Shown piece after piece: positions 1 to 20,174 of a stretch of DNA of 40,702 nt. Source of the stretch: a virus (lineage: Duplodnaviria; Heunggongvirae; Uroviricota; Caudoviricetes). The DNA lies in IMG/VR virus record IMGVR_UViG_2923350032_000005, positions 1-40,702 of that record. One strand, written 5' to 3'. Below the pieces are notes generated by a model. That model was not told the origin of the DNA and did no database searches. It saw only the letters and a list, made by a program, of their open reading frames with translations. Position 1 is the first letter of the stretch. The number at the start of each line of letters is the position of its first letter. The position numbers were made by a program, and so were the translations under genes.

Positions 1-354
1 ATGTTAGGAGCGATAGAAAAACGCTTTGGCGATAAAGTACCGGAACAGTCCATCCAGTGGCTGACAGATAACGGTTCAGCGTATAGAGCGCATGAAACAC
101 GGCAGTTCGCCAGAGAGTTGAATCTGGAGCCCTGCACAACGGCAATCAGCAGTCCTCAGAGTAATGGAATTGCAGAAAGGTTCGTGAAAACGATGAAGGA
201 AGACTACATCGCGTTCATGCCGAAACCGAATGTAAGAACGGCATTGCATAATCTTGCAGTGGCGATCGAACATTACAATGAAAACCATCCGCACAGTGCG
301 TTGGGTTATCGCTCTCCGCGAGAATATCGACGTCAGCGGGTAACGTTAACTTAA
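1..354 (+). mobile_element. IS3-family (IS2-group-like) transposase OrfB, C-terminal fragment running off the left window edge
   Basis: Translation ends ...[25 protein letters not shown]...[26 protein letters not shown]...[14 protein letters not shown], which matches from memory the DDE integrase-core C-terminus of IS2/IS3-family OrfB. The ORF is treated as a fragment because this is only the C-terminal part of a full OrfB; IS ends were not identified. Confidence 0.75.
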
Positions 355-395
355 GATACACCCCCTGTCTGGAAATAAGGGGGCAAGAACAATGA

Positions 396-1148
396 TCAGA
401 TTCCCTGGTGAGTAAGAATTTTACTTTCTGAACTCCTCTGAGAGTATTGACTTGGAGAAACACCAAAATAACGTCTAAATACATAAGTAAAGTATGAGAC
501 ACTGGCATAACCACAGACCTTAGCTACTTTACTAATAGGATAACAACGAGTGCTGAGTAAATATTCAGCCATTTGCATCCTCTCATCAAGTATGATCTTA
601 CTGAATGATACCCCCTCTTCTTTCAATTTCCTCTTTAGTAAACTTTCGCTGAGATATAATCTTGATGATATATCCTTAAGACGCCATGGTGCAGATAAAT
701 CCGTATGAATAATCGTTTTAACTTTAGCCCCTGTGCTTTTCAAACATCCAAACAGAAATACTCCAAATTGTTTTTCAGAAGAAAATGCAGAGAGACATGT
801 AAAAGCAATAGACTCATCAAAAATTTCTATGTATTCAGCACAGTGATTAGCCCAACTAATTAATCCTTTAATTAAACTGAAGTCAGCAAAGTTTATTTTT
901 AAATAAGATGGATATTCCCTACAATCAGAAATATCCCTTAAGTTATTAGCTTTCAAATAGCGACTAATAAACTCAGCGCCAAAATCCGCCACTATCACTC
1001 TTTCAGGATATGTCAGGAAAAAATCTCTAGAGCTAGAGTCGACAAGTACAGATGAACCTCTCTCCAGAAACACACTCTCTTTTCCGAAATAAACATCAAA
1101 GGACTCCAAAATCAATATAACTGAACATGTAGTTGCCATATCATCCAC
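396..1148 (-). CDS. AraC-family transcriptional regulator (C-terminal AraC-type HTH), in an AT-rich segment
   Basis: 250-aa ORF; C-terminal ...ISKVAKVCGYASVSYFTYVFRRYFGVSPSQY is the classic AraC/XylS second-helix signature. Surrounding DNA (about 400-1700) is visibly AT-rich relative to the prophage. The 3' end lies about 40 bp from the IS fragment. Confidence 0.6.
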   Translation of the reverse strand: MDDMATTCSVILILESFDVYFGKESVFLERGSSVLVDSSSRDFFLTYPERVIVADFGAEFISRYLKANNLRDISDCREYPSYLKINFADFSLIKGLISWANHCAEYIEIFDESIAFTCLSAFSSEKQFGVFLFGCLKSTGAKVKTIIHTDLSAPWRLKDISSRLYLSESLLKRKLKEEGVSFSKIILDERMQMAEYLLSTRCYPISKVAKVCGYASVSYFTYVFRRYFGVSPSQYSQRSSESKILTHQGI

Positions 1149-1721
1149 CCAATTTAACTGAAACCAGGATGAAGTATATGTATATAAAGTTCACTTTGCC
1201 AAACTTCAGTATAAAAAACCACTAAAAATAGGGTGTGATAAAAAATACCGTAACAATAAAGCAAAGGATTATAAATTCCGTTACAGTTACAAATGATACT
1301 CAAGAAACAATTCCTTAGGAAAAACTTATTTACAGCCAATAAGTAAGACACTTATATGATATCAAGTTTTCATAAAACATAACTAGGCTAAATAGCTGCG
1401 CCTAATACCGCTACACTTTTGCCAGCCCATGTTTGCCTCCGGGTATTGACCCCTTCTCTACGCAACTTCAGTTCCCACCACCAACTTTGCGGCAGCTTTG
1501 TAGGATCAATGTCTAAAAGAATAATGGTGACCGATAAGAAAACGACTGAATAACTGCAGATTTTCGCTCGAAACCTTCCTGTCAGATCCATAGCGAATCA
1601 AGTGCTGAATGTCACAGTATCGAACAGAAAACAGTGACGATCTAACCCTTCAAGAATATTCTACGATTGTTCTGTTTAGGAAAAGCAAGGCGGGAAGTCG
1701 GGAGATAAGTCATTGATAAAG

Positions 1722-1787
1722 TGGCGGAGAGAGGGGGATTTGAACCCCCGGTAGAGTTGCCCCTACTCCGGTTTTCGAGACCGGTCC
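1722..1787 (-). tRNA. Truncated tRNA-Ser (serU-like) 3' fragment, 66 nt from anticodon stem to CCA; no 5' half. Probable integration-site (att) remnant
   Basis: Reverse complement reads GGACCGGTCTCGAAAACCGGAGTAGGGGCAACTCTACCGGGGGTTCAAATCCCCCTCTCTCCGCCA, which matches the 3' two-thirds of E. coli tRNA-Ser(CGA) as I recall it. The upstream sequence does not continue into the D-arm or acceptor 5' strand. Confidence 0.65.
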
Positions 1788-1867
1788 AATCATCAAACGA
1801 AACATAAAATTAATTCACATTATGAGGAAAAGTATCTTTTTTGTACTATGTAAATTCAAAGACTTAG

Positions 1868-2737
<870 letters not shown>

Positions 2738-2797
2738 GTCTTTAAGTGATAAGCATAAACCGCAGCACGATCTTCTTGCATACGACGTGCTACGGTT

Positions 2798-3352
2798 TCA
2801 TTTATCTCCGACCGGAAACTTCTTATACAGTGTCGATATACCAACATCATAGATAATCGCCACCTTCTGGCGAGGAACGCCTGATGCAATTAATCGTCCG
2901 GCCTGCTCCCATTGTTCTGGTGTAAGTTTGGGGCGACGTCCACCAATTCGTCCCTGTGCGCGAGCTGCTTCCAGTCCAGCTTTTGTTCGTTCAACAATCA
3001 GTTCACGCTCCATTTCAGCCAGGGCACCCATCACATGAAAGAAAAAGCGCCCCATTGGGGTACTGGTATCAATTGAATCCGTCAGACTACGAAAGTTGAT
3101 GCCTCGTTCGCGCAACTCCTCCACCAGCACGACAAGATGCCGCATACTGCGCCCCAGTCGGTCCAGTTTCCAGACCACCAGCGTGTCACCTGCCGATAAT
3201 GTCCTGAGCAGCTTTTTCAGTCCTGGTCTGTCGGACTTTGTACCGCTTATCTTGTCTTCAAAAATCAGCTCACATCCTGCACAGTTCAGCGCATTACGTT
3301 GTAGATCGGTATTCTGGTCATTTGTTGATACACGTACATAGCCAATAAGCAT
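2798..3352 (-). CDS. pin: Serine-recombinase DNA invertase, Pin/Gin/Hin/Cin family
   Basis: Translation from the ATG at 3352: MLIGYVRVSTNDQNTDLQRNAL...DTLVVWKLDRLGRS...C-terminal HTH (GVPRQKVAIIYDVGISTLYKK). The ORF-track start at 3388 is an upstream extension. Adjacent to an invertible tail-fibre segment. Confidence 0.9.
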   Translation of the reverse strand: MLIGYVRVSTNDQNTDLQRNALNCAGCELIFEDKISGTKSDRPGLKKLLRTLSAGDTLVVWKLDRLGRSMRHLVVLVEELRERGINFRSLTDSIDTSTPMGRFFFHVMGALAEMERELIVERTKAGLEAARAQGRIGGRRPKLTPEQWEQAGRLIASGVPRQKVAIIYDVGISTLYKKFPVGDK

Positions 3353-3406
3353 GTTAAATCCCCCTGGTAAAAGCAGGAATGATGCCATTTGCTCGTTATT
3401 TCTGCA

Positions 3407-3432
3407 TTTTCATATACGTTGGTTTGGGAGAA
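3407..3432. repeat. Invertase crossover site (pix/gix-like), pin-proximal
   Basis: Inner half GGTTTGGGAGAA (3421-3432) is the exact reverse complement of TTCTCCCAAACC at 5154-5165; central dinucleotide TT at 3419-3420. The outer half matches only weakly. Confidence 0.55.
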
Positions 3433-3884
3433 GGCTCTGCATTACCTGTTGGTGTGCCTGTTCCGTGGCCCTCAGCCACTCCGCCAACAGGCTGGCTAAA
3501 ATGCAACGGAGCAGCTTTTTCTGCTGAAGAATACCCGGAACTGGCAAAGGCTTACCCGACAAATAAATTGCCTGATTTACGCGGTGAATTTATTCGTGGC
3601 TGGGATGACGGACGTGGAGTGGATGCCGGGCGACAATTATTATCTTCACAGGGGGATGCAATAAGAAATATTGAGGGATTCGCAGATGGCGGGATCGGCA
3701 TGTCTTTTGATGCAATCAGAGGGGCTTTTTACGATGCAGGAACACGATCAGCGAGAATGCCGAATAACACAACTGATATAGGCAAAACGATGACCTTGGA
3801 TTCGACGCCTCTCGTGTCGTGCCAACAGCTAATGAAAACCGTCCACGTAACATCGCCTTTAATTATATTGTGAGGGCTGCATAA
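3421..3884 (+). pseudogene. Alternate (silent-orientation) tail-fibre C-terminal cassette (Sv'-like, tail-collar type) with an apparent reading-frame break
   Basis: Frame continuous with the crossover site encodes GLGEGSALPVGVPVPWP...LPDLRGEFIRGWDDGRGVDAGR (tail-collar motif) up to about 3777. The conserved fibre C-terminus ...DDLGFDASRVVPTANENRPRNIAFNYIVRAA-stop is in the -1 frame (3777-3884) and its stop overlaps the next ATG as TAATG. Confidence 0.5.
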
Positions 3885-4476
3885 TGAAACCTGTTTTTGA
3901 TGAAAATGGGCTGGCTACAGTGCCGGGTGATATGCGTTGTTATTATTATGATGCAGTAACGTCTGAATATACGGGCTGGTCTGATGAATATATTAATACT
4001 GGCGTAAGTATGCCCGCCTGTTCCACTGGTATTGACCCGGGCGAATACATTCCGGGGCAAGTGGCAGTATTCACGGGTAAGGATGGAGCCATGAAGAAGA
4101 CCATCGCAATGAGACTGTTTACTCAACAGAAAATGGCGCAGCTGTTACAGTGGATTATATCGGTGCCATCAAAGACGGTTATGTCACGCTTTCACCGTTA
4201 ACGCCATATGATAAATGGGATGGTGAGAAATGGGTGACAGATACTGAGGCACAACACGATGCCGCAGTAGAAGCGGCAGAAGCACAGCGCCAGTCACTGA
4301 TTGATGCAGCAATGGCTTCCATTAGTCTGATTCAGCTGAAATTACAGGCCGGGCGGAAACTGACGCAGGCAGAAACAACCCGGCTTAACGCTGTGCTGGA
4401 TTACATTGACGCGGTGACGGCAACAGATACCAGCACCGCGCCGGATGTCATCTGGCCTGAACTGCCGGAGGCGTAG
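3884..4476 (+). pseudogene. Alternate tail-fibre assembly chaperone (tfa'), split by an apparent -1 frame break near 4081-4087
   Basis: ORF 3884..4201 gives the N-terminal part (MKPVFDENGLATVPGDM...GQVAVFTGKD) and ORF 4150..4476 the C-terminal part (...[15 protein letters not shown], the typical Tfa ending). The frame-1 sequence WSHEEDHRNETVY... opens right after a stop at 4078-4080 and continues the protein. Confidence 0.55.
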
Positions 4477-4879
4477 GCCATTCAATATCGGGTGCTGTTG
4501 AAGTATCAACACGCATCAGCAGCACACGGTATTTCTTCCATTCGGTGAGAGTTGAAGTTTCTTCATCAGTTGCGATATCAGCATCAACAGCATCCTGACG
4601 CCAGGATATTTCACTGTCAGCTTTTTCCCGTAATTGGGATTTTTTAACTTCAGCAATAGCTATTAATTCCTTTTTGGTCGGCTGAGGAATATCTATCAGT
4701 GCTGGTTTTCCATTCAGTGTTCCAATCTGTTTTCCTGGTGGAATATCCATAAATAACTTTTTATGTTCTTCCTCACTGACTATTACACCATCATCAGGCC
4801 ACAGACCTGATGCCTCAAATTTTTCTTTCTCCGATATGGGAAAAGCCATTTGCTTTAGCGCTCCATACGTACATATCAA
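4448..4879 (-). CDS. Tail-fibre assembly chaperone (Tfa), expressed orientation
   Basis: Ends ...[26 protein letters not shown], a typical Tfa C-terminus. The ORF-track start at 4879 is TTG; an ATG ([10 protein letters not shown]) lies at 4849. Directly follows the fibre gene. Confidence 0.75.
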
Positions 4880-4889
4880 TACCCCACCG

Positions 4890-5456
4890 CTATAATGTCC
4901 ACATTAAATCCTCCGGACCTGCCTGCCAGATGCTGGCCCCTGTTAATGATTTTGTTTGATGAACAACCGCCACATTTGCTGGCGATTGTGTTTCAGTTGT
5001 TACAGTACCGATATCATTCCAGTTAATTGAGATGGAATAGTTCGTTGTTGTAAACGACCGGGGAAAGTTATGTGTCTTACATTGGTGCCAATAGGAAATC
5101 CAAGATAAACACGCTGTTATCATTCCTCCAGGTAACATAACCCAGTTAGCACCTTCTCCCAAACCAAGGTTTTCGAGAGCCGTTTTCACCGTGCCGTCCG
5201 ATTTGATATCGCCAAACGGATTTTTGCGGCTTAACAGTAGCGCACTAAGCGCGGTAAGCAGCTGGTCGTGCCGCCCCTTCTCCAGGCTGGCACCGGATGC
5301 CTCCACCACGCCGCAAAGCTCCTCCTGCAACATGTCAAAGTAGTCATCATCCAGATCGGTGGCAGGTGTGCCGGTCTGGGGGTTACCACGGGTAAAACCG
5401 TTCTTACCCGCGCCGAACTTATCCTTCTGCGCGGTTTTCGTGTCTATACGATGCAT
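4890..5456 (-). CDS. Tail-fibre protein: constant N-terminal part fused through the crossover site to the currently expressed variable C-terminal part (StfP/StfE-like)
   Basis: Starts [21 protein letters not shown]... (conserved fibre N-terminus). The crossover site at 5154-5179 lies inside the ORF, encoding ...ENLGLGEG... ATG at 5456 verified on the sequence. Confidence 0.7.
5154..5179. repeat. Invertase crossover site (hix/gix/pix-like, 26 bp, imperfect palindrome), distal
   Basis: TTCTCCCAAACC-AA-GGTTTTCGAGAG closely resembles hixL (TTCTTGAAAACC-AA-GGTTTTTGATAA, from memory). Its inner half is an exact inverted repeat of 3421-3432. Confidence 0.7.
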
Positions 5457-5459
5457 GGA

Positions 5460-6044
5460 TTACTCCGGATATTTAAAAATTACGTAGGTATGCGACGGGC
5501 AGAGTTTGTTAAGCACACACTCGACAACGGTGTCGCCCCAGATACGCAGTGCGGAATCACAGGGATCGCCACATGTCATCCAGGTGGTGTTGGTGGCAGC
5601 TGGCATGTTGACCTGCCAGTAATACCGCCATTCCAGCGCATTCACTGCGTCAGTACAGGCCGATGAGCAGGTGAACGTGCTTTTATCGTATCGCGTGATA
5701 GTGGCGTCTGGTCTGCCCAGGGCAGCAAGCTGTGCAAGGTAAAAATCCTCATTGATGCCGCCCGCCAGATTAACCTTCGCATCCAGCCGTTGCTGACGCT
5801 GGCGAAGGGTCTGTGTCCCTGCGGGAATACATTCATCCGGCAGACCGCACAGACGCTCCCAGCGGTTTATCAGTTCAGTGGTGGTGCGCGGATCCAGCTC
5901 CCGCATCAGGGCATCCGCACGCTGATGAACGCGGGTTAATGACGGTGCCGCACCGGCAATCGCCGGATCGCTGACTGACCACGCCGGACCGGGCGGCAAC
6001 AGTGCCGACAACAGACGGATATAATCATCGTTTGTCACGTCCAT
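5460..6044 (-). CDS. Tail/baseplate protein, YmfQ / Mu gp48-like
   Basis: 194 aa, [22 protein letters not shown]...; position immediately upstream of the tail fibre; resemblance to e14 YmfQ family from memory. Confidence 0.6.
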
Positions 6045-7093
6045 GAAATCGTCCCCAGAACTGCCAGCTCATTTTTTGCAATGGAGATATTGTCTGCCGG
6101 TGCAAGCAACTGATGGCTGTATTCCCCGTTCGCACCGGAAATCGCTTCACTGATACGTGACACCTTCAGTTCTCCCTGCGGATAACCATCACGCAGCAGG
6201 AACGAACGCAACTCGGCGGTGATGGCAGCCCGTATTTCCGGTGTGTCCGGCGTCACGCGGATATGAAAATCCACTTTATGCGCCACCGGCCTGAATACAT
6301 ACAAATCAGAGCCTGCCACCGGGGCCAATGGCCCGATATGTTGTCTTGCCGCCGTTTCCGTTGACTCTTCCGGAATGGGATTAATCAGGTCACTGCTGGC
6401 AATCATCACACCGACAGTCCCCGTTCCCATCCAGTGTCGGTATGTCCATGCGCGGGTAATGCCGGGCACTTCTTTAGCCCAGACGACATAGTCCCCGTCA
6501 GCCCCGCCCTGAGGCGTCCAGTAATACCGCTCAATGACGCGGGCGCGCCACGTTTCCAGCTCTTCAGTATCAAATCCGCCTGTCAGGGTGTCAGCCACAC
6601 CGGAAGACGGCAGACCATTCACCGGCGTGACCAGGATTAATGCCGTACCGTCGTCAGCGTTACCGACCGCGCCTGCACTTGAGCAGGCGATCGGCACGCG
6701 CAGGACACCACCGGAGCTGGTTGCATCGGCAGTTGCCGTGTACTGAACCAGGTCATCGCGCTGAATCACGCTCCCGGCGGTCACTTTCAGGCCATCGCTG
6801 ACACCTTCCCAGCGCATATACCCGCTGGCAGCCGTGGCCCCCTTGCGCGGACACCGTTTCATCGCAGCATGTCGCGCCAGCCAGGACTCATCGCACAGGT
6901 CAGGCAGCATGTTCATTGCCAGATAATCGATGTAACCGTAAACCGTATGCAGCGCCGCCGCATACACCTTTGCCCGCACGTCTTCATCCATGCGCCGGAG
7001 CGTGTCGCTGACGTCCAGCCTGGCGAATAAATCGTTACGGAGCATACTGATATTTTCTGCCAGCGTCGGGCGCTGAAATTCACTGTCCGCCAT
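6035..7093 (-). CDS. Baseplate J-like protein (Mu gp47-like)
   Basis: 352-aa ORF in the conserved Mu-like baseplate gene order between gp46-like and gp48-like genes. Confidence 0.7.
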
Positions 7094-7508
7094 GCGTTAT
7101 CGCACTCCACAGATCATCAAAAGAAATCATTACCGGTCCGTCACGACGCCAGAGAGTGATACTGTTACCCAGTTCATTAATCCCGGTGCGGCGGATATCC
7201 AGATCAATACGGGACACCACGCCGTCATCAATCATCCATTGCAGGCATTCGCGGATATACCCCCTTACCGTCTGCACCAGCTGATTGGTCAGTTTGCTGC
7301 GCTGAAGCAGCCACAGTCGGGAGCCGTAACGGTCATTCTGTACCGCAGGCCAGGTATCCCCCCACCATCCCATCGGGACGTCGGCATTGTCATCAGGTTC
7401 AGCCCGCCGCCAGGTGAACAGGGAAATCACCACGGCACGGGTCAGCGGATCCAGCGGTGCGCTAGCGCAGGTGCGTTTACCGTTCACCGTCAGCCACAGT
7501 TCCATCAT
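7080..7508 (-). CDS. Baseplate protein, Mu gp46-like
   Basis: 142 aa; synteny within the Mu-type baseplate block; overlapping start/stop coupling with neighbours. Confidence 0.6.
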   Translation of the reverse strand: MMELWLTVNGKRTCASAPLDPLTRAVVISLFTWRRAEPDDNADVPMGWWGDTWPAVQNDRYGSRLWLLQRSKLTNQLVQTVRGYIRECLQWMIDDGVVSRIDLDIRRTGINELGNSITLWRRDGPVMISFDDLWSAITHGGQ

Positions 7509-8053
7509 GCCTCCATCGCTTTATCAGGTTTGTCGGTGTTACTGCCCTGACCGTTCTCTCTGTGACGATGCCCGTTATAGGCAAGCCGCATCGCTGACAT
7601 GGTGGTGCCGCTGGAGTCGCACAGGTCTTTCACCTGTCCGGTCACTTCCAGGTCCATTTCAAAACGAGCCTTAGGCGCATTGCGAAACGTGATCGTTTTA
7701 CCTGCACCGTCCACCACGATCCCCTCCCGGGTCAGCGTCACGGACTGCCCCTGATCGTCATAGACAGCCACCTCACCCGTCTGCAGCCCTTTCAGGCGGT
7801 AGCGCCGGTCCGACACCGTAACAACCACCGCATGAGAACGGTCGCCATCCGGAAACAACACCACCGCTTCCGCACCGCTGTTTGCCCTTGCGGTAAAACC
7901 GTAGGGTTCAAGATGTTCAACCCCGGCTTTGGGTTCACCGGCAATCAGAGACACATCCACGGTCTGACATTTCGTGGCGGCACTGATGCTTTTCACCACG
8001 GCCCGCCCAATCAGGCCGAGGAGTTGTCGCTGCATGGCTTCAATCGTCCTCAT
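7505..8053 (-). CDS. Baseplate assembly protein V / spike (Mu gp45-like)
   Basis: 182 aa; position and size typical of gpV-type spike proteins in Mu/P2-like baseplate modules. Confidence 0.65.
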   Translation of the reverse strand: MRTIEAMQRQLLGLIGRAVVKSISAATKCQTVDVSLIAGEPKAGVEHLEPYGFTARANSGAEAVVLFPDGDRSHAVVVTVSDRRYRLKGLQTGEVAVYDDQGQSVTLTREGIVVDGAGKTITFRNAPKARFEMDLEVTGQVKDLCDSSGTTMSAMRLAYNGHRHRENGQGSNTDKPDKAMEA

Positions 8054-9132
8054 CAGAACGGGTCCTCCTGTACTCTGGCTTTTTTCTTTTTTCGCGCGCC
8101 GGGGGCTTCGGGTTCAGGCAGATAAGCATCAGGTGGGCCGACACGGATTTCCGTCAGGGTGCCGTTCTGGTCCTGAGTAAACGTGACTTCCGAAACAAGC
8201 AGTTCGGTATTGTCGAAACCACAGACCGGATCAAAGACAATCACCCGCTGGTTGGGCTGCCACAGCGTACCGTTACCCTGTCGCCAGCCCTGCACCACAT
8301 AGGTGGTTTCATCCGTCCGCGCCGCCCGTTGTCTGGCTTCAAAGTCCGCACGGGCAATACAGCCTGCCCCCGTAGCCTGCCCTGTCTGCCTGATATACAT
8401 CGGACGGTAACGGGCAATAAATGCGTCCTCTGTGCGGGCCCGCAGCGCGGTGGTGGTGGCCTCACCGAAATCATCGTCGTTTCCGGCACGCTGCCCCGCC
8501 ACCTGGTAAACAGAAAACCGCTCCCGGATACTCTTCTCCGTATCACAGGAAAGGATGTTTTCCCCGAGTACCAGCGCAGTATGTGCCCGCGTTGAGCCAA
8601 TACCGCCAATCACCAGCCTGCCGTGCGGGTCGTCGTAAGCCAGTGCCTGCTGCTGACCGAGTATTTTGTTGATTACCTCAATCACCGTTTCACCGTGATC
8701 AGGCTGAACATCAGGAATAACACCCGACGGCGCACCGCTGTTCACCACCTCAATGCCGAAAGGCGCAGCAAGCGCCTGCGCAATCTGCACCAGCGAGCGT
8801 CCGTTAAACTGTGTCGGTTCGGCTGCACAGTCAATCAGGTCAGCCGTCAGACTACGTCCGGCAATACCGGTGCTGACCGAACGGGCATCGTAACGAACGG
8901 GCGTCGCCTCCACCCAGCCGGTGATCACCAGCTCATCACCAATCAGCACTTCCACTTTTGAACCGTTTTTAATGCGCGGCTGAAGCGTGGTGATACCCTC
9001 ATCTCCCGGCCACTGGCGGGTGATCTCCACACTGAAATCCCGCGCCAGCCGTTCAATACCGGCACCGATGCGCACCGATGTCCAGCCATTCCACTCCCGG
9101 CCATTTACCCGTAGCGTGACATTGTCGTTCAT
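8053..9132 (-). CDS. Tail protein, Mu P / P2 gpD-like (baseplate hub)
   Basis: 359 aa; follows the DNA-circulation-like gene as in Mu (N then P). Confidence 0.65.
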   Translation of the reverse strand: MNDNVTLRVNGREWNGWTSVRIGAGIERLARDFSVEITRQWPGDEGITTLQPRIKNGSKVEVLIGDELVITGWVEATPVRYDARSVSTGIAGRSLTADLIDCAAEPTQFNGRSLVQIAQALAAPFGIEVVNSGAPSGVIPDVQPDHGETVIEVINKILGQQQALAYDDPHGRLVIGGIGSTRAHTALVLGENILSCDTEKSIRERFSVYQVAGQRAGNDDDFGEATTTALRARTEDAFIARYRPMYIRQTGQATGAGCIARADFEARQRAARTDETTYVVQGWRQGNGTLWQPNQRVIVFDPVCGFDNTELLVSEVTFTQDQNGTLTEIRVGPPDAYLPEPEAPGARKKKKARVQEDPF

Positions 9133-10505
9133 TGCACTGGCACCTTCAGAGGGATCACCGGCACAAAGCCGGGATGCGTAATGGCATTACGCCGGATAAT
9201 GTCCGCGTCACGCGCCGCGTTATCAAACCAGGTCGCCGCCAGCACCAGCGCGGGTAAAACCTCATCCGGTGTGCGCTGAATGATCCGTGCAGACTGTTCA
9301 AGGCGCGTGTTGATATCCGCATTCAGATCTGCTTTCACCCGGCGCAGCGCCAGAAACAGCGCATCACTGGTTGTACGGGACAACTCCTTATCAATTGCCG
9401 TATTCAGTGTGTCGCGAATGTCAGTCAGTTCTTCCCACGTCGGCAGGTCAACCGTGTTTTTCACCGCCGGTGCATTGTTCAGTGCCGGATGCGTGACGGA
9501 AGGCCAGCCAGTGCTCTGCGCGGGTGTTGTTGCCTGCCCCACTGCGGAATTCTGCATCACCGCGGAAGTTGTTGGCGCAGGCAATCGGGTGACGGCATAC
9601 GCCACTTCGCTGATTGCGGTCGTACGAAGGGTGCTGGCAACCACGTTACGCTGCTGCGTCGCCGTGGCGGTGGTTTTACTGTCCGTTTTCCAGACGCCGC
9701 GCGGTTGCAGATCGCTGCCGAGGCTGACACCGGAAAGCGTTTTGATCATGGTAACCAGGTCGCTGGCGTTACCATAAAGGCGTTTCCCGGTACGCCACAT
9801 TTTCTGCACCTGCTCAACGAAATTTTTGCCTGACGATGGCGGCGGCAGAAGTACCGAGATATCCCCCTGCAACAGCCTGGCGGCATCCGATACGGCAGAA
9901 TCCACCACTTTCATCGCATCAGAAACATACCCCAGCATTATGCTGGCATTACCGATAACGTCGTTCTGCACGAAATCCGCCACACCATCGATACTGAAAC
10001 CGCTGAAGCTGTCACTAATGCAGTCATCCAGTGCAGAACAGGATGACATCAGCGTCTGCGCCGTCGCCGCACCTGATGTGGGGTAAGAGAGTTCTCCTGC
10101 TTCGACAAACTTCAGGTCAAAGCGGACAATACGCCCTTCACTTTTCGATGTGCTGACCCGAACTTCCCCGTCAACACAGACTTTCAGCTCACCATATGTC
10201 GGGTGGACAAGCGTGCCGGGACCGGGTTTATTCAGCGCTTCAATCAGGCGATCGCGCTGGTCAAAGCAGTCATCTCCCACCACATAAGCTGTGATGGACG
10301 GGCGGAAAGTGACTTTTCCCAGATCTTCGGTATAGGGCTTGTCGCGGTTCGGGTATTCATGTGTTTCCACACGGCGACCGGTTCCCGCACTTTCTTCTTC
10401 AACCTTAAACGGCACGCCGCGAAATGACGCGTCCTGAAGCCTGTCACGCCAGCCTGAAGACGACGAAAGTAATGAAGGTCGGGTGGGAAATGAGGATAAA
10501 TCCAT
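9129..10505 (-). CDS. DNA circulation protein-like tail protein (Mu N-like)
   Basis: 458 aa; located directly downstream of the tape measure gene as in Mu. Confidence 0.65.
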   Translation of the reverse strand: MDLSSFPTRPSLLSSSSGWRDRLQDASFRGVPFKVEEESAGTGRRVETHEYPNRDKPYTEDLGKVTFRPSITAYVVGDDCFDQRDRLIEALNKPGPGTLVHPTYGELKVCVDGEVRVSTSKSEGRIVRFDLKFVEAGELSYPTSGAATAQTLMSSCSALDDCISDSFSGFSIDGVADFVQNDVIGNASIMLGYVSDAMKVVDSAVSDAARLLQGDISVLLPPPSSGKNFVEQVQKMWRTGKRLYGNASDLVTMIKTLSGVSLGSDLQPRGVWKTDSKTTATATQQRNVVASTLRTTAISEVAYAVTRLPAPTTSAVMQNSAVGQATTPAQSTGWPSVTHPALNNAPAVKNTVDLPTWEELTDIRDTLNTAIDKELSRTTSDALFLALRRVKADLNADINTRLEQSARIIQRTPDEVLPALVLAATWFDNAARDADIIRRNAITHPGFVPVIPLKVPVQ

Positions 10506-10529
10506 AGACTGACCTCAAAAAGGACTGCG

Positions 10530-12437
10530 TTATCGTGGAAAACGAAAAGGGGAATACCCCACATCGTGCGTGATTTTCATCAGGGGATCGGCTTTTCCCG
10601 GTACATCAATTATCTTCATACCTGGCGGAGCATTCTCGAACGTGACTTTCAGCTCGCTGTGCTGTGTCATGGAAGAAGATGGATTCAACAGCGGAACATT
10701 GGGTTTGTACTGACTCAGGCTGGCCTGATACTGCTCGTACTCTTTACGATCAAAAAAAGGCGTCCAGTCTGAAGCCAGAAACAGCCCTTTATTATCCAGC
10801 CAGTTAACCGTATCTTCAGGAACAACACTTTCCAGAGTATCTTTAACCGGCTCATATATCAGGGTTCCCAGAAAACCATATACCCCGGCCTTCCCGATAA
10901 AGCCGCGGCCTTTCCCCATCAATCCCGTTTCTGCCGATACCTTCCCCAGCGTACGCATCTCTCTGGTCACTGCGGTAATGGATTTGGTAACGTCAGCAAC
11001 CCATTTGGTTGCCATAAACAGGGCAATCGCTTTCAGAACAGTTTCCCATCCCCCCATCGCCTGCGCCGTTTCATCCACCACGTGCCAGACTTTTTTTATG
11101 ACAGGACCTACGGTTTCCCAGTTATCAATAATGAGGTAAGCGCCACCAACCAGAAGAGCAATCAGCCCCTTAGCAGGCGTCATATTCATCACACCGCCGA
11201 GAACTTTCATAATTCTGGACAAAGAGCCTGCAGCGGCTCCCACCGTCAGTAAGGCCAGACCGATTTTAGCAATGGTCTTAACGAGCTCCGGGTTTTCACG
11301 GACAAACGTTCTCACTTCCTCAAGGAGCGGTTTTACCGCTTCAAGACCATCATTAACCTCAGGAAGAAACGTTTCCCCCAGCGTGGAAGAAATGGCATCA
11401 AGTTGATTTTGCAGAAGTAAAAGCTGGTTTTCCGTCGTCGCTGCCCTCGAAGCATATTCCTTCTGCATCGAACTGCCATATTGCTGGGAATCCGCAACCC
11501 GCCTGAAGTTGGTACGCAACAAATCAAGGTTAGTCAGCAGAGGTGCTATCGCGCCCAGAGACTCTTTCCCGAACAGGGCATTCAGCACAGCTGCCTGTTT
11601 TTCTTTAGGCACTTTAGCCATCGCATCCAGTACAGACAGCATGGTGCCCCGGGCATCTTTCTGCATATCAGTAGCTAATTTCTTCGGATTGATCCGCAGA
11701 AAACGCAATGCCTGTTTCTGCGATTTTGTCGCGGAATTTCCCGCGGTCAGGGAAAGCATGAAGTTCTTGATCCCTGTGGCGGCAATTTCTGACTCCACGC
11801 CCATCCCGGCAATGGTTGCCCCCATCGCCGCGATTTCGCCGGAAGCCACACCAGCAACACCACCTAAAGGACCAATACGCGTAACAATATCGGAGATTTT
11901 CTTCGCATTCGCCGGGCCGGTATTACCAAGGTAGTTGATTTTGTCAGCCAGCCCAGCCACTTCATCCTGTGTCATATTAAACGCAGTACGCCACTGGGCC
12001 ATCATCTGCCCGGACTCTTCAGCCGTTGTATCAAAGGCCACGCCCATCTTCACCGCATCAGTGGCAAACTGCATCAGTTCATCACGTGCAATCCCGGCCT
12101 GACCGCCAGCCGCCACAATTTCCGCGATCCCGTCTGCAGACATGGGAAGCTCTGTAGACAAAGCGCGTACCTGCTCCGTCATGGCCTTAAATGCATCCGG
12201 CGTATCCAGACCGTCCACCACTTTGCGGACATCAGCCATCTTCGATTCAAGGGTGATGGCTGATTTTACAGGGAGTGCCAGTGCCCCCATTATTGCAGTA
12301 CCAGCCCCGGCAGCGCCCAGAGCAAGGCTGGAGACTTCTTTCTGAAATCCCTTAAGCTGACGCTGCATACCTTTAAGCGGGCCGGATAGCCTGTCAACGG
12401 CGGTGATGATGGCTTTCAGCTGAAAATTATCAGCCAT
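10530..12437 (-). CDS. Tail tape measure protein
   Basis: 635 aa, Ala/Gly/Met-rich with predicted helical repeats (…AGGQAGIARDELMQFATDAVKMGVAFD…); lies between tube/chaperone and baseplate genes. Confidence 0.85.
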   Translation of the reverse strand: MADNFQLKAIITAVDRLSGPLKGMQRQLKGFQKEVSSLALGAAGAGTAIMGALALPVKSAITLESKMADVRKVVDGLDTPDAFKAMTEQVRALSTELPMSADGIAEIVAAGGQAGIARDELMQFATDAVKMGVAFDTTAEESGQMMAQWRTAFNMTQDEVAGLADKINYLGNTGPANAKKISDIVTRIGPLGGVAGVASGEIAAMGATIAGMGVESEIAATGIKNFMLSLTAGNSATKSQKQALRFLRINPKKLATDMQKDARGTMLSVLDAMAKVPKEKQAAVLNALFGKESLGAIAPLLTNLDLLRTNFRRVADSQQYGSSMQKEYASRAATTENQLLLLQNQLDAISSTLGETFLPEVNDGLEAVKPLLEEVRTFVRENPELVKTIAKIGLALLTVGAAAGSLSRIMKVLGGVMNMTPAKGLIALLVGGAYLIIDNWETVGPVIKKVWHVVDETAQAMGGWETVLKAIALFMATKWVADVTKSITAVTREMRTLGKVSAETGLMGKGRGFIGKAGVYGFLGTLIYEPVKDTLESVVPEDTVNWLDNKGLFLASDWTPFFDRKEYEQYQASLSQYKPNVPLLNPSSSMTQHSELKVTFENAPPGMKIIDVPGKADPLMKITHDVGYSPFRFPR

Positions 12438-12521
12438 GCTTCATCTCCTCATTTATACGGACGGCCTCTGCCTCCAGATCAGCAAAGTGAGAAATAGCCG
12501 TCCGGCGAAGTTCAAGGGGGT

Positions 12522-12845
12522 TTAATTTCCAGAACCACGCGACATTGTAGAATCGCTTCCGGAGGTCTCTTCCGTCTCCAAGCCGGTAAAAAAACGCATT
12601 ACAATCATGCCTGCCTTGAAAATATCCAGCTTCGTCATCTGCGCTGCAGACGAGCGCGGGATCCCGGCCAGAAGCGGGATATATTTCAGCGCCACCTGAC
12701 TGTCCATTTTCATACCACCATCAGGCGAAACAGAGAAAGGGAACCCCAGCGCCTCAATCTCGTCATACGTAGGCTCACGTATTTCCAACACATGCAGTGT
12801 TTCTTTGTGGGCGATGATCGGTTTTTTAAGTACAAGCTCAATCAC
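12522..12845 (-). CDS. Tail assembly chaperone (between tube and tape measure)
   Basis: 107 aa, positional call; an 84-bp gap separates it from the tape measure gene. Confidence 0.45.
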   Translation of the reverse strand: MIELVLKKPIIAHKETLHVLEIREPTYDEIEALGFPFSVSPDGGMKMDSQVALKYIPLLAGIPRSSAAQMTKLDIFKAGMIVMRFFTGLETEETSGSDSTMSRGSGN

Positions 12846-13198
12846 TGGTAATCCCCTTCTTCACCGTGAAATTCAATATCGACCGTGCCTTCTTCGGCAT
12901 TATGGTTCGCTTCACCGTGCAGCCAGGCAGACGACAATACATAGACCTGACCGTTCGCCAGCTCGGCAGTGATGGTCATCTCATCAGACGAGGTGATTTT
13001 GCTCACCGGAAAATTCTTCGGTACCTTGAAAGTCCCTTTGACATAAGGCGCACGGTGAGTTTCCTTGCGGTCCACTGAACCGTCCAGGCCGATGATGTCA
13101 TCATTGACCGTCCTGTTCATGGGCACCTCAATGCCGCCGGTCAGCGATAGCTGTTGACCGTCAATTTTGAAATAACAGGTTCCCCCGATACGGGCCAT
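12842..13198 (-). CDS. Contractile tail tube protein (Mu M-like)
   Basis: 118 aa; immediately downstream of the sheath gene with a 4-bp overlap. Confidence 0.7.
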   Translation of the reverse strand: MARIGGTCYFKIDGQQLSLTGGIEVPMNRTVNDDIIGLDGSVDRKETHRAPYVKGTFKVPKNFPVSKITSSDEMTITAELANGQVYVLSSAWLHGEANHNAEEGTVDIEFHGEEGDYQ

Positions 13199-14694
13199 TA
13201 TGCAGACTCCTCTGAATACTGAAGACGGAACTGGTTAACCACGGCAAAGACACGCAACTGGTTAACATAGTCAGGCGGGAACAGCGTGTTCAGGCGGTTC
13301 GGATCGCTGGCATCACGCTCCACAACCAGGTACTGCTTAAACAGTTCGTAGTTTTCCACGATCCCCGCACGCTCAAGCTGACGGTAGGTTGTCAGCAGTT
13401 CCCCTTTGATCACCGCCGGTGTGACAATCGCCTGACCGGGACCAAAGCGGGTACCGTCGCTGGCAAGCTTGTGACGCCCGTACTTACTGGTAATGACGGA
13501 TTTCAGTTTGCGCAGCACATACGCGCTGGTATGCAGCGTCTCGCTGTCGAGGTAGCTGTTATCCGCAACACCGTAAGCATTTTTCCTGTACGTGGTGACA
13601 TCACGCTGAATGCGCAGCACCCCGCTTTCGACATACGCCGTTGCCACGCCATGCGACAGCAGGGTCTGTTGTTCGGTCATCGTGAACCGTTTCCCCTTCG
13701 GCGCAGGCAGCATACCCACCAGCTCACCGGTCTGCGTGGGACGTGCCGGATCGTTGCGAATAAACACTGCTGCGCGGGCGGTACGGCTTGCCGCCAGCTC
13801 GTCGGCAGGCGTCGGGGTCTCTTTTTCGTATCCCGCCAGGGTAATGTGCTGCTGGTTAAACTGGTCACCTGCGGTCACCAGTTCTGACAGCGTGCCGATC
13901 TTTGCCGTATACACATGACCATACAGCTGACGCGCATAGCTCCAGCGACCGCTGGTATCGTTCATCTCGGTCACCAGCGTGTTAACGGAGGCCGTGTCGT
14001 TGAACGGCAGGCCGATATAATCAAACGGCTCATCCGCCATTGCAGCCACCGCGCCGGTGAGAACAGGAGCGCCCGTTCCAGCGGTACCCGTCGCCACGGC
14101 AATCTGTACGCCCGCTGGCAGCACTTCGCCCCCACCAAAGCCGTAGTAATTGAGGCTGACAGGAATTTCATTCCCGCAAAGCCCCTTATGACGCGCGGTC
14201 AGTGTGATCACGCCTGCCGAAGATGAGGCAGTAAACGGCAGGGTCGGAACGGCATTGATGGCATCTTTGATACTGCTGGCAATCGTCGCGACGTTATCGC
14301 CGTTGGTCACCGGTGCCTGCACGCGGGTACGTCCCACATAAACATTCACCGTGCCGGTTTCGGTTGCCGCTCCGGTCACCGTCAGCGTAACTGTTGCCGC
14401 CGCGCCCGTGGATTCAGGAACGGCAATCACATACAGTTCACCAAACGGGTCGGTCTGGCGATAAGCCTCGACCATACGCGACAACTGACTTCCCGCACCA
14501 CAAATCTGGCGTGCATAGTCTGCCGATGGCATCAGCACCAGACTGTTGGCAACAATCTCTGCACCGTTATTGGCATGACCAATCAGCAGCGATGCTCCGC
14601 TGTCCTGTGCAGTATTCGCCGCCGAGTTATCCATTTCCGCATAAAAAATCGGAACCAGCGTATTCGACGGAATGGAGTTAAAGCTTATCGTCAT
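13198..14694 (-). CDS. Contractile tail sheath protein (Mu L-like)
   Basis: 498 aa; size and position match the Mu-type sheath; ATG at 14694 verified. Confidence 0.8.
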   Translation of the reverse strand: MTISFNSIPSNTLVPIFYAEMDNSAANTAQDSGASLLIGHANNGAEIVANSLVLMPSADYARQICGAGSQLSRMVEAYRQTDPFGELYVIAVPESTGAAATVTLTVTGAATETGTVNVYVGRTRVQAPVTNGDNVATIASSIKDAINAVPTLPFTASSSAGVITLTARHKGLCGNEIPVSLNYYGFGGGEVLPAGVQIAVATGTAGTGAPVLTGAVAAMADEPFDYIGLPFNDTASVNTLVTEMNDTSGRWSYARQLYGHVYTAKIGTLSELVTAGDQFNQQHITLAGYEKETPTPADELAASRTARAAVFIRNDPARPTQTGELVGMLPAPKGKRFTMTEQQTLLSHGVATAYVESGVLRIQRDVTTYRKNAYGVADNSYLDSETLHTSAYVLRKLKSVITSKYGRHKLASDGTRFGPGQAIVTPAVIKGELLTTYRQLERAGIVENYELFKQYLVVERDASDPNRLNTLFPPDYVNQLRVFAVVNQFRLQYSEESA

Positions 14695-14848
14695 CGGTAT
14701 TCACCTTTTCATTCACGCGCCGGATATCACCCGCTGCTTCACGGCGCAGCCAGTAGTTGTTCTCATCAACATTTCGCCCCTCGGCGGGCAAAAGGTCGCC
14801 GCGGGCAGGGTCAGGAACTGACCGCCCTTTAACAGGTTTCACAAACAT
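14685..14848 (-). CDS. Small hypothetical protein (54 aa) overlapping the sheath start
   Basis: My own translation of the gap 14695-14856: MFVKPVKGRSVPDPARGDLLPAEGRNVDENNYWLRREAAGDIRRVNEKVNTDDKL. Below the ORF-track size cut-off; no family recognised. Confidence 0.3.
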
Positions 14849-14856
14849 GAAGATTC

Positions 14857-15417
14857 TCAGGAAGGAAGGGTTATTTCGGTGTGATGTTCGATATCGCCGT
14901 CAGGCCCGTTACCGGGATCGAGATAATCAACATCAATCGCCAGCGTTCGCAGTTCATCCAGACTGTTCAGATCATCCTGCTGGCGGGTATCGTCTTCGGT
15001 CAGCTCGCTGATGACCGAAAAATCGAACTGATAAATCAGCTCATGACGATTCAGATCCAGCAGCGTGCCACCGTCATAGGTAATCGGATTACCGCACGCT
15101 TCCAGGTTCCAGCCCAGCAGGGCCTTAAAGAGCATTTGCCGGACATCGTCCACCACATCATACGAGGCAAACTGACCGCGCTCATCACGCCCGTTACTCA
15201 GTATGACAACCACGGAGAAGCCCTCTTTCAGCTCCTGCCAGTAGTCGGTCTGGCTTTTGTTTTCTCCCGGAGAATCATCACCCGGTACAACATATGCCGC
15301 CGGGAGTCTCAGCTTTCCGACCTCCGGCAGATTTTTGAACTGTGCCGCGCCTGCCACCCGGTTTTCAAAATACAGACAGCGGGCACGCAGCGCAGCAATA
15401 ACAGGAGTCAGTTTCAT
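14857..15417 (-). CDS. Tail completion / head-tail joining protein (Mu gp37-like region)
   Basis: 186 aa; positional call between head-closure genes and the sheath. Confidence 0.45.
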   Translation of the reverse strand: MKLTPVIAALRARCLYFENRVAGAAQFKNLPEVGKLRLPAAYVVPGDDSPGENKSQTDYWQELKEGFSVVVILSNGRDERGQFASYDVVDDVRQMLFKALLGWNLEACGNPITYDGGTLLDLNRHELIYQFDFSVISELTEDDTRQQDDLNSLDELRTLAIDVDYLDPGNGPDGDIEHHTEITLPS

Positions 15418-15965
15418 GTTTTTTTCCTTCTTACAGGACGTAATGACCGCTGTAACTCACGGGACAGTAACTTTTGTGTCCAGTAACGACGCTGGTCGAT
15501 GACATCAGCCATAAAGTTATTACGTGGTGCCAGCCGCCAGCGGGATGAATGCTGCTTTTTCTGGCGCTTATCCTTTTTGCTCATCCCGTATGCGGCATGA
15601 CGCACACCGTAATACAGAAACGCCGGATAATACGCAGAACCTTCAGGAAAACGCCGGTTACCCTGCCCGTTTTTCTGGTTAGGGGAAATCCTGACCATCA
15701 GGCCAGAACGACGGGAGCTTTTACGGGGGACGTAATAACCTATAGAACGCGCAAGTCGTCCGGTCTGATAGCCGGGGTTTTCACCTGGAGCAGACCGACC
15801 ACGTCGCATCACCAGCCGCCGGGCATCACGCATATAGACACGCCCGATTTGAACAAATGCCCTTCGGAGCCTGGCACGGTTAAACTCCATCTCCTCCGGT
15901 TGTTTGAAATCAACGTGTAAAAATGCTGTCTGATCCACTGCGTCCTCCCATTTGTTCTTCGGCAC
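15414..15965 (-). CDS. HK97 gp10-like head-tail joining protein
   Basis: 183 aa, basic; position after the head-tail adaptor in an HK97-type head module. Confidence 0.5.
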   Translation of the reverse strand: MPKNKWEDAVDQTAFLHVDFKQPEEMEFNRARLRRAFVQIGRVYMRDARRLVMRRGRSAPGENPGYQTGRLARSIGYYVPRKSSRRSGLMVRISPNQKNGQGNRRFPEGSAYYPAFLYYGVRHAAYGMSKKDKRQKKQHSSRWRLAPRNNFMADVIDQRRYWTQKLLSRELQRSLRPVRRKKT

Positions 15966-16320
15966 CCAGTTCCGTACACTCCAGCAGCAGAAAGCGCCGC
16001 GCCCCGTTCAGATCACGCTGACGTTTCACCCGGTACACACGGTCATCACAGACCACCTCATAATCAGCAGTGATCCCCCGGCGGTAGCGAATGGTGATGT
16101 AATGGGTGATGGCGTCCCCGGTCTGCGCGGTTTCCTGCCAGGTGGTGGCACTGGTCTGGATAACCTTCGCCCATGTCCGGAACGTAACCGGGTATTGAGG
16201 CTCCACGCCAAAGTTATCCGCGGGCATATCCACCCGCTGGCGGATCAGGACGCGTTTATTCAGTTCACCGGGGTCCGGCAGAATGTAGGTTGCGCTGGTC
16301 TGCGCCTGACGAATTTTCAT
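15910..16320 (-). CDS. Head-tail adaptor / head closure protein
   Basis: 136 aa; position after the gp6-like connector. Confidence 0.6.
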   Translation of the reverse strand: MKIRQAQTSATYILPDPGELNKRVLIRQRVDMPADNFGVEPQYPVTFRTWAKVIQTSATTWQETAQTGDAITHYITIRYRRGITADYEVVCDDRVYRVKRQRDLNGARRFLLLECTELGAEEQMGGRSGSDSIFTR

Positions 16321-16640
16321 TGCGGAAAGTACCTGTACGGGCCGACAAGCCAGCCAAAACTCTGCGGCATGTCGAGTTTCTCCACTTCCGTAACCGACGA
16401 GCGGTTTTCGTAAAAATGGCTGATAAGCATCAGCATCCCCAGACGAATATCATCCGGCAGGTGCAGCCCGTCCGGATCGCTGTCCGGAATGGTTTCATCC
16501 GGTGCATAGAGCTTCCGGTTCAGATACGTTTCTGTCCGCTTTTGTGCCGCACAGGCCAGCAGTTGCAGATGGCGGTCATCAGCATCGAAATCCTCATCCA
16601 GCCGGAGTTGGGCTTTAATCTCTTCCATTGTCAGAAGCAT
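16317..16640 (-). CDS. gp6-like head-tail connector protein
   Basis: 107 aa, MLLTMEEIKAQLRLDEDFDADDRHLQLL...; typical of gp6-like connector proteins downstream of an HK97-type capsid gene. Confidence 0.65.
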   Translation of the reverse strand: MLLTMEEIKAQLRLDEDFDADDRHLQLLACAAQKRTETYLNRKLYAPDETIPDSDPDGLHLPDDIRLGMLMLISHFYENRSSVTEVEKLDMPQSFGWLVGPYRYFPQ

Positions 16641-16642
16641 AC

Positions 16643-16843
16643 TCAGCCCTCTTTACTGGTCGTGGCTTTTTTCTCTTTTGTCGCTTTATTGCTTTTTGCA
16701 CTGGTTCCGCGCTCTGCTAACCCGGCCTGAAGTGCAATCTCCTGCACCCGGGCAGGAAGCGCCCCGTCGTCATACTCACCGGCCCGAATGACCTCAACAC
16801 GCATACCGTCCGGTGACCATTTCAGATCTTGTTTCAGGATCAT
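16643..16843 (-). CDS. Small hypothetical protein downstream of the major capsid gene
   Basis: 66 aa with a Lys/Thr-rich tail; a stem-loop precedes it. Confidence 0.4.
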   Translation of the reverse strand: MILKQDLKWSPDGMRVEVIRAGEYDDGALPARVQEIALQAGLAERGTSAKSNKATKEKKATTSKEG

Positions 16844-16862
16844 GATTCTTCACCCGTCAGAA

Positions 16863-16886
16863 CAGGGGCGCGGTTCCGCGCCCCTG
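16863..16886 (-). other. Perfect GC-rich hairpin between the major capsid gene stop and the next gene (no U-tract)
   Basis: CAGGGGCGCGG-TT-CCGCGCCCCTG, an 11-bp inverted repeat seen directly in the sequence just 3' of the capsid stop (16892). Confidence 0.4.
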
Positions 16887-16891
16887 AGTGA

Positions 16892-18097
16892 TTACGCCAC
16901 TGCAATCTTCAGCAGTTTGATGGCCTGCGAATCGACCAGCATGCCGCCGGTGCGTTTGGTGGTATAAAAACCGACAAACGGTTTATTGGTGTACGGGTCA
17001 CGCAGAATGCGGGTGCCGATACGGTCAACGATGGTGTAACCCCGTTTGAAGTTACCAAATGCAATGGCTTTCGCATCAGCGGCGATATCCGGCATCTGTT
17101 CGTTTTCAGCGATACCGTAACCCGCCAGAGAGGACGGCTGCCCCAGCTCCAGCCCCGGACGCCACAGATAGTTACCCTCGCTGTCTTTCAGCAGACGTAT
17201 GGCAAACAGGCTGTTGTTGTTCATCATGAACTTCGCGCCAGTGCGGTGTGCCTTACGCAGCGTGTAAATCAGTTTGATAATGGCGTCTGCGGTCACCGCG
17301 GTCGCTTCGCCGGATACAATATGCTGAAGTTTGCCGAACGCCCGGACCTTGTCGGTTTCATCCGTGGATTCATACGCCAGGAACCCTTTCGGCTTCTTGG
17401 TGCCATTGCCTGAGGTAAAGGCAATTTCTTCCTGTTCGGCAAATTCGGTTGCCAGCTCGCTGTTGATCCAGGCCTCCACGTTGAAGAAGGCATCGTCCAG
17501 CATTTTCTGGGTAGCCTGCGGGTTGCCGTAGATTTCCCCCATGAGAGGTTCAATCAGCTCCAGTCTGGAGGTGGCAGTCTGGGATCGCGTATCCGTTTCC
17601 CCCACCCATCCGGAAGCCGTGCCGCCCAGATTCACCAGTTTTTTGTAGTCGGAACCGCCAACGGTGATCACCGTGGCTTCCTGACGCATCACCACTTCAT
17701 CTTTCAGCAGGTTAAGAATGTTGCGATCCAGTTCTTCCGGCACGGCGTAGCCACCGTCTTCATCGGTACCCACCTGCAATGCCTTACGCTCCAGATCGCG
17801 CAGACCGTCTTCACGGCCTTTACGCAGGAAGCCCACAAACGCCTCTTTATGCTCGGTGGCCAGTTTATTTTGCGCTCCACCTGCCGGACGTTTCAGCTCA
17901 AGCAGCTCTTTTTCAAGGTCGCTTTTGAGATTTTCCAGCTCGCTGAGTTTCCCGTTCAGGGTTTCCACCTGCCCGGCAAGCTTGCCTTTTTCCTGCTCAA
18001 TCGCATCCACGCGCTTGTCGTTCTTTGCTTTGAAGTCGTCAAACTTCTGCTGCAGCTCCTGCGCGACCTGTTCGACATCTTTAATATCAACCGCCAT
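16892..18097 (-). CDS. Major capsid protein, HK97 family
   Basis: 401 aa; N-terminal coiled-coil delta-like region (…EQVAQELQQKFDDFKAKNDKRVDAIEQEKGKLAG…) then capsid domain; follows the prohead protease as in HK97. Confidence 0.9.
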   Translation of the reverse strand: MAVDIKDVEQVAQELQQKFDDFKAKNDKRVDAIEQEKGKLAGQVETLNGKLSELENLKSDLEKELLELKRPAGGAQNKLATEHKEAFVGFLRKGREDGLRDLERKALQVGTDEDGGYAVPEELDRNILNLLKDEVVMRQEATVITVGGSDYKKLVNLGGTASGWVGETDTRSQTATSRLELIEPLMGEIYGNPQATQKMLDDAFFNVEAWINSELATEFAEQEEIAFTSGNGTKKPKGFLAYESTDETDKVRAFGKLQHIVSGEATAVTADAIIKLIYTLRKAHRTGAKFMMNNNSLFAIRLLKDSEGNYLWRPGLELGQPSSLAGYGIAENEQMPDIAADAKAIAFGNFKRGYTIVDRIGTRILRDPYTNKPFVGFYTTKRTGGMLVDSQAIKLLKIAVA

Positions 18098-18111
18098 CGT
18101 ATTTCTCCTGA

Positions 18112-19981: not shown

Positions 19982-20163
19982 TATTTACCTCCGCCGACAG
20001 ACGACTGTGTACGGTCGAGATATCGCGCCACCAGCCACGACCAGAACAGGCACAACGCCCCGGCAACAACAAACCCCGCCGGGGGATAAATCAGCCAGGC
20101 ACCATACGCCAGCAAAAGCGCCCCCAGCACGCCCACCAGAGGCGCGAGAATCAGCATGATCAT
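19981..20163 (-). CDS. Small predicted membrane protein between terminase and portal
   Basis: 60 aa, strongly hydrophobic ([45 protein letters not shown]...). Confidence 0.35.
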
Positions 20164-20174
20164 AATTACCTCAG

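Follow-up and report, generated by a model that had tools for sequence, protein, structure and literature searches.

The stretch of DNA analyzed here (the window; 40,702 nucleotides) is a complete e14-like prophage, in which the genes for capsid, tail, lysis, and regulation are intact and which is adjoined by tRNA-Thr(CGT) and proA. Positions 2798 to 5456 of the window contain the following features:

2798 to 3352, minus strand: Pin-type serine DNA invertase of 184 aa, beginning MLIGYV, with Pfam matches to Resolvase (1.3e-51) and HTH_7
3407 to 3432: left 26-bp crossover site, in reverse complement TTCTCCCAAACC AA CGTATATGAAAA, with the central dinucleotide at 3419 to 3420
3421 to 3884, plus strand: silent fibre C-terminal cassette of the tail-collar type, with a Pfam Collar domain; one C missing at 3788
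3884 to 4476, plus strand: silent tail-fibre assembly chaperone, 197 aa if intact, with a Pfam Caudo_TAP match; one G missing at 4081 to 4082
4448 to 4874, minus strand: chaperone of the currently expressed cassette, 142 aa if intact, with a Pfam Caudo_TAP match; two bases missing
4877 to 5165, minus strand: gp53-like fibre C-terminal cassette, currently joined to the constant part; three lesions
5154 to 5179: right 26-bp crossover site, TTCTCCCAAACC AA GGTTTTCGAGAG, with the central dinucleotide at 5166 to 5167
5168 to 5456, minus strand: constant N-terminal fibre part (MHRIDTK...ENLGLGEG), reading into the invertible segment

The invertase is identical to PinE of the e14 prophage of Escherichia coli K-12 at 176 of 184 residues (96%), and relatives with identical invertase DNA carry the gene annotated as pinE (WP_000904961.1). 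Both crossover sites are marked by an inverted repeat of 19 nt (3416 to 3434 and 5152 to 5170) that is 95% complementary. Between these sites, the segment measures ~1.75 kb and comprises two convergent modules, each consisting of a fibre C terminus and a chaperone; the Gp53-like_C match that gives the cassette at 4877 to 5165 its name is slightly below the Pfam cutoff. Both orientations of the segment are found in nature. GF75 and CDF6 have it in the same orientation as the window, while E. coli isolate 602 (NZ_OW968111.1) has the same late region with the segment inverted between flanks that are 100% identical, and identity to isolate 602 flips from direct to inverted exactly at the left site. 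The constant fibre part is identical in the two states, as represented by GF75 (same orientation) and isolate 602 (opposite orientation).

Based on the invertase, the inverted 26-bp sites, the constant fibre part with its two cassette/chaperone modules, and the occurrence of both orientations, we assign the locus as an ordinary Pin-type host-range switch in a full-length e14-like prophage. In such a switch, the serine invertase flips the 1.75-kb segment between the two 26-bp sites, and flipping joins the constant fibre N terminus to either of the C-terminal cassettes, each with its own assembly chaperone. The same logic underlies the G segment of phage Mu and the C segment of phage P1 (with the invertases Gin and Cin, respectively), in which a serine invertase acts at 26-bp inverted sites and a constant N terminus is combined with two C termini and two chaperones. 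We liken the window locus to these systems by their known architecture; compared with Mu and P1, its fibre is much shorter (194 or 251 aa, depending on the cassette) and its invertase is of the Pin subgroup.

The closest system is the P segment of e14 in K-12 (PinE, stfP/tfaP, and stfE/tfaE), for which Plasterk and van de Putte (1985) and Mehta et al. (2004) are cited in PMC4272514. The half-site common to the window and the e14 P segment, TTCTCCCAAACC, is 12 bp long and identical at both ends. The gene order is also that of e14, i.e., ymfQ, the constant fibre part, a cassette with its chaperone, a convergent chaperone with its cassette, and pin, and the constant part together with the baseplate genes is 95.9% identical to the e14 counterpart. 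The segment is ~1.75 kb here versus the 1,797 bp reported for the e14 invertible segment (PMC12529663). Unlike the cryptic e14, the window prophage is full length and lies at tRNA-Thr/proA rather than in icd. Its cassettes are mosaic, with only a part of the silent fibre cassette and the chaperone end resembling stfE/tfaE (~92%), and its sequence as given is without eight bases, a difference from e14 that concerns us in the following.

Single-base lesions in the silent module

When read from the left crossover site in the frame of position 3421, the fibre ORF reaches a stop codon at 3871 to 3873 and has an unrelated ending, ...TMTLDSTPLVSCQQLMKTVHVTSPLIIL. An earlier reading of the DNA, made from the sequence only, had proposed that the frame of this cassette changes near 3777 and that the conserved fibre ending is in the −1 frame. 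Both points were borne out. The ending DDLGFDASRVVPTANENRPRNIAFNYIVRAA, followed by its stop codon, occupies the −1 frame between 3783 and 3884, and alignment to intact relatives places the lesion at 3788, about 10 nt downstream of the proposed position, where CC is reduced to C (AAAACCGATG in intact relatives versus AAAACGATG in the window).

The neighboring chaperone gene has a lesion of the same kind. Its N-terminal part is encoded by an ORF extending from 3884 to 4201, which then leaves the frame, while positions 4081 to 4476 encode the remainder of the protein, beginning GWSHEEDHRNETVY, in the −1 frame. The lesion, GGG to GG at 4081 to 4082, lies inside the interval 4081 to 4087 to which the frame change had been assigned. 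We also carried out the comparison with intact homologous cassettes that had been proposed as a check. In isolate 602, which we used as the reference and in which all four fibre and chaperone genes are intact, the corresponding two proteins are continuous, and re-inserting the two bases into the window sequence gives 100% identity to them.

Additional lesions in the expressed module

Alignment to relatives uncovered four more lesion sites, with six missing bases, in the half of the segment that is now joined to the fibre gene. The chaperone has lost two bases, a G and an A, 10 codons past its start (GGGGAAAAA to GGGAAAA at 4837 to 4843). The fibre cassette has three lesions, i.e., GGG to GG at 4915 to 4916, GGGGG to GGGG at 5060 to 5063, and the loss of AA between 5116 and 5117. 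In total, eight bases are missing at six break sites, and all of them map between the crossover sites. As the sequence stands, the silent orientation is not alone in being broken; the expressed module is the worse off, with three frame breaks in the C-terminal part of the fibre and two bases lost near the start of the chaperone.

This distribution bears on the proposal that the silent cassette is decaying next to a working inversion partner. The proposal was not supported, the expressed cassette being the more damaged one. The greater damage to the active fibre is by itself enough to dismiss a scenario in which decay affects the silent copy and the active one is maintained.

The two-base loss at 4837 to 4843 creates an in-frame ATG and thereby a 133-aa product (4448 to 4846, minus strand). 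This 133-aa chaperone has been deposited as ARM81132.1/WP_085704207.1 and is represented by a single contig in a collection of 15 billion proteins, from which the products of the other frameshifted ORFs are absent. Annotation pipelines call it a tail fibre assembly protein, and the database entry probably owes its existence to an assembly error.

With the eight bases re-inserted, all four proteins agree at 100% identity with annotated, intact counterparts in isolate 602 or GF75. Specifically, the repaired silent fibre cassette exactly matches the C-terminal part of WP_023910274.1 (isolate 602), the repaired silent chaperone is identical to the isolate 602 protein, and the repaired expressed fibre (194 aa) is identical to the proteins of both GF75 and CDF6.

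With all six sites in hand, we considered programmed ribosomal frameshifting or another form of recoding that would join the frames. There is precedent for this in phage tail genes, in which the lambda G/GT type is one classic programmed −1 frameshift. However, all examined homologues, close or distant, have one continuous frame at both silent-half sites, the missing base is all that sets the window apart from them, and six sites in four genes would need recoding. We regard this explanation as extremely improbable.

Differences from the closest relative over positions 1 to 22505 map to the invertible segment

We compared the window with isolate 602 both inside and outside the segment. The flanks (1 to 3434 and 5152 to 22505; 20.8 kb) align without a mismatch and without a gap. 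By contrast, the segment itself (3419 to 5170) aligns with eight gaps and one mismatch, which is the asymmetric base of the imperfect crossover repeat, so that there is no real substitution inside the segment. The segment makes up 7.8% of the compared length yet contains all six events (Fisher P = 2.2e-7). Each of the eight changes is a deletion, and in six cases a run of 2 to 5 identical bases has become shorter. For comparison, the right-hand 18.3 kb of the window is 99.4% identical to CDF6 and contains one 5-bp repeat-unit indel, i.e., natural divergence consists nearly entirely of substitutions.

We weighed these data against real decay, in which six independent small deletions would have inactivated both fibres and both chaperones, leaving no working fibre in either orientation. 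The lesions are present in the sequence as given, and prophage tail-fibre genes do decay, as exemplified by stfE, which is annotated as a pseudogene in K-12 e14. The pattern expected of decay was nevertheless not found: there are six indels and zero substitutions, all in 1.75 kb, while the 20.8 kb around them is base-perfect and the remaining structural genes of the prophage are intact and tightly packed. Moreover, a single hit suffices to inactivate a gene, and six are unnecessary. The e14 segment has a host-level role in blocking adsorption of phage T2 (PMC12529663), so real inactivation of such a segment would not be trivial. Overall, we consider real decay unlikely.

We also considered import of a block through recombination with a decayed paralogous cassette at another place in the genome. 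Prophages exchange cassettes, and the segment is mosaic relative to K-12 e14. But paralogues are 90 to 97% identical, and import would bring substitutions, of which there are none relative to isolate 602; this scenario is therefore very improbable.

Distribution of the lesions among relatives

We searched for the lesions in other sequences, including 5,426 complete E. coli genomes. Among the matches listed, ten are full length, and each of them exceeds the query by 8 or 9 bases. For the part of the silent half containing both lesions (3740 to 4130), eight genomes among the matches listed are identical to the window except for the two missing bases and none is 100% identical; each listed match spans two bases more than the part of the query that it covers. 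Similarly, for the part of the expressed half with the lesions (4800 to 5160), each listed match spans six bases more than the query, with E308 as the sole exception. The two alleles of the fibre lesion at 3788 (site 1) correspond to the k-mers TGATATAGGCAAAACGATGACCTTGGATT and TGATATAGGCAAAACCGATGACCTTGGATT; four metagenome contigs carry the intact allele, and none carries the deletion allele. Metagenome homologues with 92 to 96% identity retain both bases. At site 2, the chaperone lesion, neither the deletion allele nor the intact allele was found in a scan of species-representative genomes, which therefore has no bearing on the lesion. Genuine pseudogenes can be tested by inheritance, and in this test the silent-half lesions are common to no related genome among the matches listed, which counts against real decay.

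In E308 (NZ_CP030281.1), the G5 to G4 change of 5060 to 5063 recurs, and the 4915 site has also lost one base, though a different one. Both lesions are located in a silent cassette beside an invertase in an unrelated P2-like prophage (2578 to 2900 of the examined locus), where no CDS is annotated. That a silent cassette has lesions at two of the same sites is a point in favor of real decay. The recurrence of the G5 to G4 change, however, could be read in two ways, as it fits a systematic error and fits a real slippage hot spot, too. We also note a 150-bp gap between the fibre gene of E308 and its chaperone (1423 to 1575 of the examined locus), which suggests that the active fibre of E308 is truncated as well. 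E308 may be another example of an invertible segment with clustered lesions; its segment as a whole is without a close intact relative.

If the deletions were real, they would imply either a mutational process tied to the segment or strong, repeated host selection against expression of either fibre. They would point to a process that specifically inactivates both states of a host-range switch, and the lesion shared with E308 would then mark a hot spot. To our knowledge, no mechanism specifically inactivates both states of such a switch. We are likewise aware of no mutational process that targets the interior of an invertible segment, since cleavage by serine invertases is, as far as we know, restricted to the central dinucleotide of each crossover site. 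We judge this possibility to be quite improbable.

A local consensus artefact as the most probable explanation

The frame breaks are very probably a residual consensus artefact of sequencing or assembly rather than gene decay. In support of this interpretation, all deletions lie inside the segment, there are zero substitutions, 20.8 kb of flanks are base-perfect, the relatives examined lack the silent-half lesions, and repair restores intact proteins. Biologically, the frame breaks are best treated as not being a real feature. The sequence-only reading had named two sequencing errors as the alternative to decay; the evidence favors errors as the cause, while the count is not two but eight bases at six sites.

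The flanks contain 94 runs of at least 5 identical bases, up to 8 bases long, with zero discrepancies from isolate 602, which points to a local failure rather than to a generally poor assembly. Generally low assembly quality is ruled out by these error-free runs together with the intact other genes of the prophage.

As the most probable cause of such a local failure, we infer a mixture of segment orientations. The sequenced culture would have held both orientations, and reads from the other orientation would degrade consensus calling or polishing inside the segment only. The consensus would then have lost bases inside the segment only, for the most part where a base is repeated a few times in a row. 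In agreement with the first step, both orientations of the e14 Pin segment coexist in clonal cultures (PMC4272514); in agreement with the second, near-balanced mixtures of orientations give rise to polishing mistakes in the form of dense clusters of changes (PMC9980784). The window matches these expectations in that the errors are confined to the region with two orientations and are small deletions mostly in runs of identical bases. Three observations fit less well. First, at 5116/5117 a whole dinucleotide (AA) is gone and no long run is shortened, which is atypical. Second, runs of only 2 to 3 bases are not classic error sites. Third, short reads inside the segment map equally well either way, and the heterogeneity mechanism would therefore need long-read or pair-aware polishing.

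There is a documented parallel for an artefact arising from mixed orientations. Wick et al. (2023; PMC9980784) reported a cluster of errors in long-read assemblies at the 314-bp fim promoter switch. As in the window, a dense cluster of small errors was confined to a region with two orientations while the rest of the assembly was accurate. Unlike the fim promoter switch, the region in the window is a 1.75-kb coding segment, and errors here consequently appear as frameshifted genes.

Alternatively, the errors could stem from the multi-copy nature of the cassettes, in which case errors in genes with similar copies in other prophages would have been skipped by short-read polishing and remained uncorrected, and mixed orientation would be irrelevant. 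Fibre and chaperone cassettes recur within genomes, with a median of 2 and a maximum of 11 places in a genome, and short-read polishers fail in repeats (PMC9980784). Yet the lesion-bearing parts (3740 to 4130 and 4800 to 5160) are single copy in isolate 602, the closest relative, and the most widely shared part, the C-terminal halves of the chaperones (4083 to 4836), is without a lesion. For these two reasons, the multi-copy variant appears less likely than an artefact of mixed orientations; taken by itself, it is improbable.

With the locus being a textbook Pin/e14 switch and the decay probably not real, the biological weight of these findings is small. Rather, they call for caution, as errors can concentrate locally in invertible segments even when a complete genome is otherwise accurate. 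The outcome here is four intact genes that look like pseudogenes and a spurious protein in the databases (WP_085704207.1). Anyone surveying the decay of silent cassettes, the domestication of prophages, or pseudogene load should leave such regions out or verify them in the reads.

Mosaic structure of the remaining prophage

Close to the gene for the terminase small subunit, at ~22506, identity to isolate 602 falls abruptly from 100% to divergent sequence and then to no match. From ~22506 onward, the window matches CDF6 and GF75 at 99.4%. Judged by these identity profiles, the prophage is a recent recombinant, with the late region matching one lineage and the early, lysis, and integration regions matching another. 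The sole indel relative to CDF6 in the ~18 kb with 99.4% identity is intergenic, at position 22906, where the window has one copy fewer of the tandem unit TAATG.

At the opposite end, positions 1 to 2737 contain a fragment of an IS3-family transposase gene (1 to 354), a gene for an AraC-family regulator (396 to 1148, minus strand), and a gene for a LEM-3-like GIY-YIG protein (1913 to 2737). K-12 e14 has mcrA at the corresponding position, and this part of the window looks like variable cargo at the prophage end. Between the AraC-family and GIY-YIG genes, positions 1725 to 1803 resemble the 3' part of a truncated type II tRNA on the minus strand. ARAGORN made no call here, and Rfam gave only a subthreshold match (tRNA-Sec model; 29.7 bits versus a cutoff of 47). 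This tRNA-like sequence may be a remnant of an older attachment site.
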